Notes under the pieces: generated by a model | The model's input: the letters and a program-made list of their open reading frames with translations, nothing else | Told to the model about the DNA's origin: nothing | Databases searched by the model: none | DNA from: Amoebidium appalachense | Taxonomy: Eukaryota > Protista > Ichthyosporea | Length of the DNA stretch: 64,000 nucleotides | Direction: 5' to 3' | NCBI GenBank assembly: GCA_963693365.1 | Contig: CAVNZM010000006.1 | Span: forward strand, 3,658,001 to 3,722,000 | Program-made: the position numbers and the translations under genes | Part shown: piece after piece, positions 58,001 to 61,000 of the stretch | Layout: the number at the start of each line of letters is the position of its first letter | How positions within the stretch are numbered: the first letter of the stretch is position 1

Positions 58001-61000
58001 CCCCCCCCCCCCCCCTCCCTTCCCCCCCCCCCCCCAAACAAAACACACACACACACACACACAAAAAAAAAAAAAAAAAAAAAAGAAAACACATCCATTT
58101 TCCCTCCCACCTCCTAACACGCGCACACACCCACCACTCCCCCCACCTCACCCACCCACCCCCACACCCCCACCCACGTACTCTGTGCGCTGTGCTCTCA
58201 GAGTGGGCAGTGCCTGGGCTATTGCCTTTGAGTTGAGCACTCTGACCTCCACCACCCTCACCTGGTGCGCAACACTGCCCGCCACCCCACCATCAATCCC
58301 TGTAGGCAGATTAGTCTATGAGGTCGTGTGCCTGTATCCGTACCTTTGCCCCCCCCCCTCCACCCCCTCCACCCCCCCCCCCCCCCCCCCCCCCCCCCCC
58401 CCCAAAAAAAAAAAAAAAAAAAGGAAAAAAAAAAAGGAGGAGGAGGATGGTAGGTTTGAATGCGGAACACGGTATGAAGTGCGCATACACGAAGGACACA
58501 TGCACAGGCAAACATTCAAGTATGCAACATAGCCATGCGCACAGTATGTGTCATAAGCAGAGCCCATCCTCAGGGAGGGCCCAAGTCATCAATTGCGTCT
58601 GAGTTTCGACCCCTTAGCCCGCGTATATACGACTCTCCAACTCAGACAGCAGCATCAACTGGACTTGGGAGGGTCAACCCGTCTTGATCAAAGACGAGCA
58701 GGGTTGCTTATGCAAGCAAGGTGAGCAAAACGGTGAATATGTGTGTGCAAACTAATGCAGTGCGAGGAGGATTGGGGGGGGGGGGGGGGGGGGGGGGGGA
58801 AGGAAAAAAGGAGCAGTGTGTGTTGTTTGTGTGTGTGTTTGTGTGTATGTGTGTGTGGTGGTGGTGGTGGTTGGGGGGGGGGGGGGGGGGGGGGGGGGGG
58901 GAGTGGGGGGTCCATACGATCTCATGTTCTCATTTTTTTTCCCTTCCTTTCTTTCCCCTTGTATTCCATTTTCGTTTCCATTTATTGTCCCCACCTCTCG
59001 CTCTTCTTTACTAACTCTCTTCTTTTCTTTTCCACTTTATTCAATCTTGTTTATTTTTCATTTTGTTTTTTTGGGGGGAGAGAAGGGTTGGAGGGGGGAA
59101 GGCAGGGGGCCAGGAGGTGGGGGGGTGGGGGGGCATGGAATTTGAGGGCACGTGCACACACCTGTGACCTCTGTGAGGATGGCATCCCACGTGTGTGTGT
59201 CTCTGCCTGCTGCCTCCCATACGGCCTTTTCCAGCCGTGACACATCAACATCCTTGGGGGGGGGGGGGGGGGGGGGGTAGAACCCCAGATGGCGGGGGCG
59301 GGGAGGAGGGGGAGGGGAGAGGGGGGGGGGGGGGGGGGAGGGGCAGGGGGAGGAGGTGGAGAGAGGGGGGAGGGGGGGGGGAGGGGGGGGGGATAGTATC
59401 GTGTTTAGGAGCAAGCACGCTTGTGTTGTTGTGAAACGGTGTCAGGAAAAGACCCCTCCATCAATAGTTAACATCCAATGAACACAGGAAAACATGGGAT
59501 GTTGGAAAAGGGATGGGGAAGGGGGAGGGGGAGGGGGAGGGGGAAGAGGAGGGGAGGGAGGGAGGGAGGGAGGGAGGAAGGGAGGGAGGGACGTGGACGG
59601 AGGGAGGGAAAGAGAGGCACACCTTTAACAACTGCACTAATAATTAATATACCCACTCACCTTTAACAACTGCATCTGTCCGCTAAGCTTTTCGACTGCC
59701 ACTGCTTTTGTCTTACATATTTCCTCGAGCTTGGGATCCCCTTGTGACTGAGGAGGGGCCGAGGGGAGGGGCGGGGGAGGAGAGGGGGGAGGGAGGAGGG
59801 AGGGAGGGAGGGGGGGGGGGGGGGGGTTAGAATGAATCACAAAGTACAAATCCACGATGGACAGCACAATTCAGATATTGCATAGTACAAGCACAGAGTA
59901 TAGACCATCAGCAGAGTCGATCCTCGTATAATGGTTGAAGGTGGAGAGGGGGGGGGGGAGTGGGGGGGAGGGGGTGAGGAGGGGCGGGGGGGGGGGGGGG
60001 GGGGGGGGGGGGACAGCCACAATTCCTGGCTGTCAAGGAATGTGGTCTGGCTGTGGGCTTTATCATTTTCATAAATATTGCCATTAGATCAATTTTCAAC
60101 ATTGACATCACTAAAACTTATTCATATCAATAGTATTAGTTTAAAATCAAAAAAATTATCAGTATCATCATATCATCATGTATCGGGGGGGGGGGGGGGG
60201 GGGGGGGGAAGTAGTGCAAGAAATACGTCAAGGTATATCCAGAAGATTCTGTGGTGATGGTCGTGGTGGTGGTGTGTGTGTGTGTGTGTGTGTGTGTGTG
60301 TGTGTGTGTGTGTGTGTGTGTGTGCGCGCGCGCGCGTACACACACACGCGTGTGTGCGCGCGTGTATGTGTGTGTGCGTGTGTATGTGTGTGTTTGTGTG
60401 TGCGTGTGTGTGCAATGTGGGCAAAGGGGAGGAGTAGTGTGGGGGTGTGTGTGTGTGTGTGTGTGTGTGTGTGTGTGTGTGTGTGTGTGTGTGTGTGTGT
60501 GTGTGTGTGTGTGTGTGTGTGTGTGTGTGTGTGTGTGCGTTTGCGTGTGCGTGTGCGTGTGTGTGCATGCGTGTGTACGCGTGTTTGTGCGTTGTGCATG
60601 CCTGTCTGAGTGCATGCTGGCATGTTTGTGTTTGTGTGTGTGCCAGGTAAGGAAAGGGTGAAGAGAGGTCATCATGGCATACCTCATTTTGCAATTTCTC
60701 GAGAGACTCCTTGAAGGACCTAAGCCTCTTTGTGAGCTTTCTGATCTCGAAGGCAACACCCGTCTTCACGATCTTGTGCACAGTTTTGCGCAAATGGTGC
60801 TGGGGGAAAAACTATTATTAGCCAGATTGCAATGACTATATCGGCCAATCATATTGCTGCAGCAGGCAAGAACCAACAAATAAAATATGGGGGGGGGGGG
60901 GGGGGGGGGGGAGGGGGGGAGGGGGGGGAGGGGGGGGGGGGGGGGGGGGGGTTCGTGAACGAATAGACATTTTTACTTCTTTCCCCCTATCTTCCTTTTT

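Follow-up and report, generated by a model that had tools for sequence, protein, structure and literature searches.

A dispersed repeat in the genome of Amoebidium appalachense (Ichthyosporea) probably carries an active hammerhead ribozyme with a split core, at the 3' end of a Penelope-like element (PLE) of the Naiad/Chlamys type. The repeat lies in a stretch of 64,000 nucleotides (assembly GCA_963693365.1, contig CAVNZM010000006.1, positions 3,658,001 to 3,722,000), called the window here, which holds two copies of the complete motif, A and B (Table 1). An initial annotation had described it as a folded RNA with a long stem and a pseudoknot that did not fit the hammerhead consensus. We lean slightly towards a wider reading as well: the motif would be a seventh topology of active hammerhead, with a five-way junction and an arm braced by a kink-turn (k-turn), and together with overlooked forms of type CSG it would be the missing ribozyme of the Naiad/Chlamys clade, here on a family of very high copy number that targets C-runs and maybe cutting as a strand-swapped dimer between tandem copies.

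The repeat is a real, selected RNA structure. The inner stem, outer stem, crossing helix, 5' hairpin and enclosing helix were all found on the minus strand where the initial annotation had placed them, and the G-U wobbles (3 in copy A and 6 in copy B; 47 pairs) are workable on that strand only. Of the core pairs, 26 are canonical in A; B differs from A there by 14 substitutions, yet no pair is broken and four are changed on both sides. Random placement of the substitutions broke a mean of 6.6-9.6 pairs, and zero broken pairs occurred in 0, 0 and 25 of 200,000 simulations at each of three transition rates; the test is generous, since the structure was derived from the same two copies, and its significance is overstated. 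Covariation was assessed on eight copies in the window (2 complete) and on variant tables from public sequencing runs. Across the eight copies, 94.2% of 156 cells were paired versus 34-46% with slid partners, and five pairs showed a two-sided change; shuffles equalled the observed values of five measures in 1/500, 33/500, 11/500, 144/500 and 7/500 cases. In the public runs most of the variants keep pairing (58662, 48009, 48046, and 47958 with 48012), whereas those at 58680 (in the hairpin; 15% in run X1, 0.05% in X2) and 47926 (2-4%) break a pair. Within the crossing helix, contigs of two runs carry the variant at 47958 in 4.4% and 4.1% and that at its partner 48012 in 4.2% and 4.2%, each side being counted on its own. 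The covariation claimed earlier thus held for the inner stem, the outer stem and the crossing helix but not for the enclosing helix and the 5' hairpin, which are identical in A and B. The blocks flanking the core agree between the two copies at 47/49 and 26/28 positions and the middle at 57/87. Two details of the original drawing had to be given up: the 3' hairpin shares its GGG with the outer stem, so that both cannot form together, and the sixth pair of the crossing helix is lost in copy C and in the 58670 variant. Folding of the whole element was unremarkable (z of -1.89 and -0.76) in a model without pseudoknots.

These helices can be read as a hammerhead. Hammerhead numbering is used for those of A and B, and the conserved blocks are defined as in Eckert et al. 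2023 (PMC10085705). The crossing helix is stem II, which opens with G10.1-C11.1 and is directly followed by GAAA; it has 5 bp, one two-sided change and matching variant shares. Stem III corresponds to the inner stem, with 13-14 pairs of which 3 show a two-sided change; it is closed by A15.1-U16.1 and ends in a GUU site. The G-rich letters after GUU can pair with the C-rich letters directly before CUGAGGA as a putative stem I, of 4 bp in A, with one apparent two-sided change that depends on the alignment; its third pair is A-U in copy A and G-C in copy B. What had been drawn as the loop of a 3' hairpin is the CUGAnGA strand, with the stem I strand before it. CUGAnGA, GAAA, A15.1-U16.1 and H17 are all present in A, B and C and are not all found in F. 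The earlier statement that no hammerhead fits is not supported, as stem II with GAAA, stem III with GUU and stem I with CUGAnGA can all be assigned. The idea of a functional folded RNA in a retroposon, possibly catalytic, gained support; that of a new catalytic motif stands for the arrangement but not for the class, which is a known one.

Along the RNA, the strands follow each other as P1 (the enclosing helix) 5' strand, hairpin, stem II 5' strand, outer stem, stem III, GUU, stem I 5' strand and a linker hairpin, and then as stem II 3' strand, GAAA, stem III, outer stem, stem I 3' strand, CUGAGGA and P1 3' strand. The blocks come in the order S, G, C as in type SGC, with the covarying stem II strand upstream of all of them, so block C is split: this strand lies about 100 nt upstream of CUGAGGA, compared with at most 2 nt in a whole block C. 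Beyond A9 the chain turns back to the 5' end and pairs with it in P1, and the 7-bp hairpin stands just before G10.1. The outer stem, after the stem II 5' strand and before the stem I 3' strand, takes the position of the I-II interaction helix of types CSG and SGC. The motif is a CSG/SGC/GCS circle opened at the A9-G10.1 bond, within block C, and falls outside the six published permutations. A k-turn consists of a 3-nt bulge and then tandem G.A pairs, and binds L7Ae. Judging by its letters, the loop between stem III and the outer stem may be k-turn-like, with a tandem G.A pattern that fits A and, less well, B.

A descriptor of the split block C matched only A and B in the window (2 matches) and none of 267,702 dinucleotide shuffles (0/149,342 and 0/118,360), of which 844 and 847 held both core motifs in order. 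The descriptor was written with A, B and the Naiad cases in mind and shows only that the arrangement is no chance event. More copies were sought by a DNA scan, which gave none in viral contigs, metagenome contigs or prokaryote genomes; a looser pattern found 118 loci in 10 of the 64 parts of the metagenome collection, and none of these loci, pre-selected for two core motifs, fitted the descriptor or the profile of the repeat. No variant fell on a core nucleotide among the 13 places with variants of at least 3% and the 18 of at least 2%, which is weak because most positions are invariant. No Rfam family reached its gathering score in the window, and the best E in further Rfam searches was 0.5. 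Hammerhead_1 weakly matched stem II and GAAAC of B (14.2 bits, gathering 34, E 2.9); a type-I minimal hammerhead in B, which this match would imply, was rejected because A has no site at that position.

A parallel was found among published PLEs. Craig et al. 2021 (PMC8557442) report the Naiad and Chlamys elements as without canonical hammerheads, some having core motifs that fit no descriptor, and list eight 'HHR_half_core' cases in which GAAA is found 35-50 nt to either side. In the supplement of that paper, 5 of the 12 Naiad 3' ends examined whole show the split order together with a perfect CUGAnGA and stems of unrelated sequence. These are Naiad-3_Chem, Naiad_Plae and Naiad_EuTe, the record preceding >Naiad_Plae, and the record preceding >Naiad_Adux, in which stem II is poor and the site is GUU. 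Two octopus records found by motif search have the same order, making seven records; the comparison was by eye throughout, none via the descriptor. By their order in File S1, the four records not named by a header here would be Naiad-2_Movir, Naiad_Esco, Naiad_Obim and Naiad_Ovul. As in the Amoebidium element, a 7-bp hairpin with a 7-nt loop stands before G10.1 in Naiad_Plae and Naiad-3_Chem, and in the octopus records stem III and the outer stem are separated by tandem G.A. In these parallels stem I has 4-6 bp, P1 starts 0-1 nt after A9, the outer-stem linkers measure 0-3 nt, and there is a bend between stem III and the outer stem. The motif was not apparent by eye in the other 7 of the 12 Naiad ends or in both Chlamys 3' ends examined whole, which counts against our reading.

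Two further observations were made in the same supplement. Six Naiad 3' ends (parts 13-16) look by eye like whole type-CSG hammerheads with an interaction helix; this type was previously known from only two metagenome sequences (PMC10085705). The 3' end of Chlamys-2_tObl (part 42) has a stem II hairpin and then GAAA, with no CUGAnGA seen nearby.

The behaviour of the element is that of a retroelement. A and B had been regarded as two full-length copies sharing their termini; the shared 5' edge turned out to be no more than the point at which the likeness between two subfamilies ends. Sequence of the A type extends to 58763 and beyond, B-type sequence to 48228 and, in one contig of run X20, at least 413 nt more, and upstream of the supposed terminus the subfamilies carry unrelated sequence. 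The motif sits near the 3' end of a longer element and not, like the ribozymes of R2 and RTE, at a 5' end. A profile search of the window gave 13 significant matches (15 rows, 12 loci), and one further short end was added by eye. The 3' end is common to 12 of 13 copies and the 5' starts all differ. A C-run of at least six within 20 nt 3' of the copy accompanies 11 of 13 copies (background 6.2%), the others being A, where the tract has decayed, and E, where the tail diverges. Only A and B (2/13) hold the complete motif, the copies have no poly(A) tail, and most are dead ends. The family is abundant: in the larger DNA runs, 5663 and 2635 contigs lie on copy A and 4524 and 6304 on copy B, with 6 in X13 (counts of contigs, which give no copy number). 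In X6 the summed depth is 1.15 million around 47900 and drops 5'-ward to 0.13-0.18 million around 48150-48209, and 77 contigs of that run exit into poly-G at 47925. Several contigs link a truncated 5' end head-to-tail to the 3' end of another copy across short G/C spacers, and copies O and C form such a partial tandem in the window; none was seen before a full open reading frame (ORF). Truncation, a fixed 3' end, C-runs and tandems together are the pattern of a target-primed retroelement, as in Chlamys PLEs, for which (C)n targets, 5' truncation and partial tandems are described; two (C)n-type Chlamys consensi end in AA and a C-run, like the present element (PMC8557442). Taking this behaviour together with the RNA parallel in Naiads, membership in the PLEs is likely by analogy.

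On these grounds, the structured part of 150 nt is predicted to be a self-cleaving hammerhead in which the CUGAnGA strand is split from the stem II strand. Its core would be a five-way junction, with P1 and the hairpin in place of the A9-G10.1 bond. The outer stem would link the far ends of stems I and II, and the k-turn-like loop would bend stem III towards it. Cleavage is expected after GUU at the sites given in Table 1; it would probably be slow and might occur as a dimer between tandem copies. Cutting of head-to-tail read-through transcripts would yield unit-length RNA, possibly followed by circularisation; the same has been proposed for other PLE hammerheads (Cervera and de la Pena 2014, PMC4209133). 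Insertion would begin with a nick in a G/C-run that primes reverse transcription from the fixed 3' end; this synthesis would often halt early or anneal at an internal C-run before CUGAGGA, which would join the 5' end.

Several observations weigh against active cleavage. Stem I has only 3 bp in B, and GUU is a weak cleavage triplet. A local hairpin that hides the core strand has -6.0 kcal/mol in A and -3.4 in B, compared with -3.7 and -2.5 for the stem I duplexes. Contigs of X20, an RNA run by guess, span both predicted cut sites at a depth like that of the neighbourhood, and no pile-up of ends at these sites was seen among the loose ends listed. Contigs of X20 that start at 47979 were considered as cleavage ends and rejected, as they are due to the variant at 48009. 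Copy F retains the distal stem III and differs at several core positions. By rough arithmetic, a 14-pair stem III stacked on stem II would not reach the far ends of stems I and II via an 8-bp arm and a 1-nt linker. On this geometry no single molecule could keep every helix in the active fold, which suggests that a dimer forms, that the outer stem is partly open or that the fold is non-catalytic. A similar puzzle exists for some active SGC ribozymes (PMC10085705), and Naiad_EuTe likewise has a long stem III. In the known hammerhead alignments of PMC10085705, no insertions of more than 1-2 nt are reported beside CUGAnGA, which also speaks against our assignment. Single-nucleotide insertions that separate position 9 from position 10.1 are known in PLE hammerheads (PMC4209133), and the A9-G10.1 bond is thus a plausible place to open the chain.

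In a rather unlikely alternative, the 3' end and helices are the same PLE ones and the RNA of this family no longer cuts: a compact pseudoknot derived from a hammerhead would be kept as a binding signal for the reverse transcriptase or another protein, with stem II stacked on the outer stem and lying beside stem III through the k-turn-like bend. A single fold would then accommodate every covarying helix, and stem III exceeds that of most Naiad examples by roughly one helical turn. The marginal stem I of B, the X20 contigs across the predicted sites and the retention of stem III without the core in F agree with it, and the near identity of the flanks (47/49 and 26/28) between otherwise divergent subfamilies would suit recognition by a protein. 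Roles other than cleavage are allowed for PLE hammerheads by Cervera and de la Pena (PMC4209133). Against it, all core nucleotides and stem I are retained in two subfamilies that differ at 30/87 core columns and are unrelated upstream, and the same core is kept in Naiads of four animal groups. We prefer a hammerhead that cleaves.

As to the carrier, no GIY-YIG, CxC or PLE reverse transcriptase domain was found among the 389 frames of the window. Searches with the frame upstream of B (48141-48228) gave no true relative and no Pfam domain; a 3653-aa repeat protein with 29% identity to it was dismissed as spurious. Neither the window frames nor searches with this upstream frame linked a reverse transcriptase to the element, inverted 5' copies, which along with a 30-40 bp tail mark such PLEs, were absent among the joints listed, and the fold is Naiad-like but the target Chlamys-like, all of which count against a Naiad/Chlamys-type PLE. 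It is improbable that the carrier is a C-run-specific retrotransposon without long terminal repeats (non-LTR), or a module like a short interspersed element (SINE), with a structured RNA in its 3' region. Such a carrier would share the 5' truncation and fixed 3' end, which are general to target-primed elements, would agree with the failure to find a PLE protein, and could target microsatellites, as is described for long interspersed elements (LINEs) with a restriction-like endonuclease. The RNA architecture, in contrast, matches the 3' ends of Naiad PLEs; the copies have no poly(A) and form head-to-tail partial tandems. SINEs carry a tRNA, 5S or 7SL head and have a defined 5' end; no tRNA or Rfam head was found in the window, the true 5' end lying outside it. 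The sole LINE fragment of the window (13064-14074, minus strand) is the 5'-truncated C-terminus of a reverse transcriptase; it shares 43% identity with P0001 (RVT_1), has a short 3' region ending in A, and was rejected as a partner because its 3' end differs.

An ordinary type-SGC hammerhead is very improbable. Stem II would then be formed from GGCUC after CUGAGGA, with a 2-nt insertion, and the upstream helix would be an inhibitory alternative fold. This agrees with the S, G, C block order (PMC10085705); the downstream strand can give five pairs in A, two of them G-U, and copies E, G and H have A at one of its positions. Between A and B, however, that strand stays constant and the strand it would have to pair with does not, which breaks a pair, whereas the upstream strand changes along; in the Naiad parallels, moreover, the letters after CUGAnGA pair with P1 and not with block G. 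[quoted passage not shown]

The split-core hammerhead is closest to the type-SGC and type-CSG ribozymes (PMC10085705), with which it shares the core, a pseudoknotted connectivity, the link between stems I and II, an additional helix by which these two stems are joined at their far ends, and a stem III a few nucleotides from that helix. Block C is whole in all six of their permutations, whereas here the chain ends emerge inside block C, with two helices between A9 and G10.1. They come from metatranscriptomes and metagenomes and their cleavage is demonstrated; the present motif is in a eukaryotic retroelement and its cleavage is predicted. With Naiad and Chlamys elements (PMC8557442) it shares 5' truncation, partial tandems, microsatellite targets and core motifs in the 3' untranslated region, and their 'HHR_core' and 'HHR_half_core' motifs were published without a fold in the parts available to us. 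In comparison with Naiads, which are from animals and favour (TA)n, the present element has a longer stem III and a hairpin as its I-II linker, and its copies have no attached ORF. Type-I minimal PLE hammerheads (PMC4209133) have in common with it the location in PLE terminal repeats, a short stem I, and an expectation of low activity and dimer action; they differ by a circular order with little or no stem III, in contrast to the long stem III and pseudoknot found here. Non-autonomous Chlamys elements (MRC1-like) and non-LTR retrozymes are also short, head-to-tail and PLE-dependent, with 3' ends shared with a longer element. Retrozymes consist of tandem units with type-I ribozymes, while the present copies are mostly single truncated ends. 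The HDV-like ribozymes of R2 and RTE (PMC6765202) are likewise self-cleaving RNAs in target-specific retroelements and differ in their fold and 5' location.

No description of a hammerhead opened within block C, or of a fold for the Naiad cores, was found in the literature searched, which did not extend to most subscription papers, Weinberg et al. 2015 or the Eckert supplements; papers sought by host lineage contained nothing on this element. A 2026 paper mentions hammerheads with additional helices, citing Eckert 2023, Forgia 2023 and Weinberg 2015; in the available parts of Forgia 2023 (PMC10162972) there are only length variants and no split variant, and none is in those of PMC6765202. If the proposed fold is true, it would overturn the assumption of uninterruptible hammerhead blocks that limits the permutations to six (PMC10085705) and the view that Naiad/Chlamys elements proliferate without hammerheads (PMC8557442). 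Standard descriptors and Rfam would then miss a ribozyme form possibly abundant in eukaryotic genomes. The exact predicted cut sites make the topology and the role of PLE ribozymes testable together.

Table 1. Copies of the repeat in the window and the features assigned to them
Feature	Position	Strand	Remark
Copy A, 5'-truncated 3' end of subfamily A	58455..58763	-	C-run 5', decayed C-rich tract 3'
A, enclosing helix P1, 5' strand	58705..58711	-	pairs with 58553-58559; invariant
A, proximal P1 extension	58701-58703 with 58563-58565	-	invariant
A, 7-bp hairpin with 7-nt loop, before G10.1	58678..58698	-	together with P1 separates A9 from G10.1
A, stem II 5' strand from G10.1 (initially the pseudoknot)	58671..58675	-	pairs with 58608-58612; both sides changed in B
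A, outer stem 5' strand	58662..58669	-	pairs with 58580-58587; 1 two-sided and 2 one-sided changes
A, internal loop ending UGA	58655..58661	-	opposite GAU 58588-58590; tandem G.A; kept in A, B, C, lost in F
A, stem III strand ending in GUU	58639..58654	-	predicted cut 58639/58638
A, stem I 5' strand	58635..58638	-	4 bp with 58574-58577
A, block G: stem II 3' strand, GAAA (58604-58607), stem III strand	58592..58612	-	from the motif reading
A, stem I 3' strand and CUGAGGA (58567-58573)	58567..58577	-	from the motif reading
A, U-rich 3' tail to fixed end CATTCAAA	58455..58551	-	profile comparison of copies
Copy B, 5'-truncated 3' end of subfamily B	47812..48228	-	between two C-runs, in an ADAT1-like intron
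B, complete motif	47899..48051	-	descriptor match
B, stem II	48012-48016/47954-47958	-	GAAA at 47950-47953
B, GUU	47981/47980	-	predicted cut
B, stem I	47978-47980/47920-47922	-	CUGAGGA at 47913-47919
B, upstream part	48141..48228	-	one frame open to stop 48168-48170, putative ORF end
Copy C, subfamily A	52744..53040	-	cut off just 5' of stem II; without hairpin and P1 5' strand
C, cleavage site	53003/53002	-	predicted
Copy O, short decayed 3' end	53064..53100	-	head-to-tail with C across a C-run; by eye
Copy D, truncated at outer stem	2978..3127	+	C-runs on both sides
Copy F, divergent or decayed	23652..23838	+	distal stem III retained in other letters; hammerhead core not retained
Copy E	56990..57103	-	starts in C-run before CUGAGGA; tail diverges
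Copy G, tail only	18322..18422	+	starts inside core strand
Copy H, decayed	59828..59927	-	tail and core remnant
Copy I, tail only	45186..45284	-	profile match
Copy L, tail only	46834..46925	-	profile match
Copy M, short 3' end	43061..43104	-	E 1.8e-5; left out of profile
Copy N, short 3' end downstream of B	47637..47691	-	E 4.4e-4; left out of profile

Some minor features of the copies were also recorded. The best-kept part of the tail, some 20 nt from the 3' end, is a hairpin of 4 bp closed by a UUC loop (47830-47841, minus strand; equivalents in C, D, G and I), a possible signal for the initiation of reverse transcription. The tail of copy C contains an exact 60-nt tandem duplication (52767-52885). 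One contig each in X2 and X6 has a joint between 47916 and 48013, by which most of the part enclosed by stem II is missing and the stem III region is shorter; perhaps this is a template jump across the helix. In the frame upstream of B, P, LRD and W residues are spaced in a way that, to the eye, is similar to the C-terminus of Chlamys-2_cRei; searches with this frame gave no relative. Two 14-nt probes from upstream loose ends had no match in the window. In the sequence L079, positions 729-1050 hold at least five tandem units of 65-70 nt, each with CUGAAGA and GAAA, which are possibly degenerate minimal hammerheads.

The window is intron-rich eukaryotic DNA with many C/G runs and CA repeats. 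An ADAT1-like gene with many small exons occupies roughly 50638 to 42688 of the minus strand; among 11 candidate relatives was one ADAT1 relative from a mollusc. The gene spans copies B, I, L, M and N, which all have the sense orientation. Further dispersed repeats, 73-92% identical and without Pfam domains, were seen at 444-942, 4920-5712 and 6687-7473, at 4249-4534 with 8983-9274, and at 2648-2811 with 8046-8209. Around the LINE fragment, 12740-15110 contains repeated GGAAATTTCC-type palindromes, and an imperfect palindrome of 87 nt lies at 16872-16960; both may be remnants of DNA transposons.

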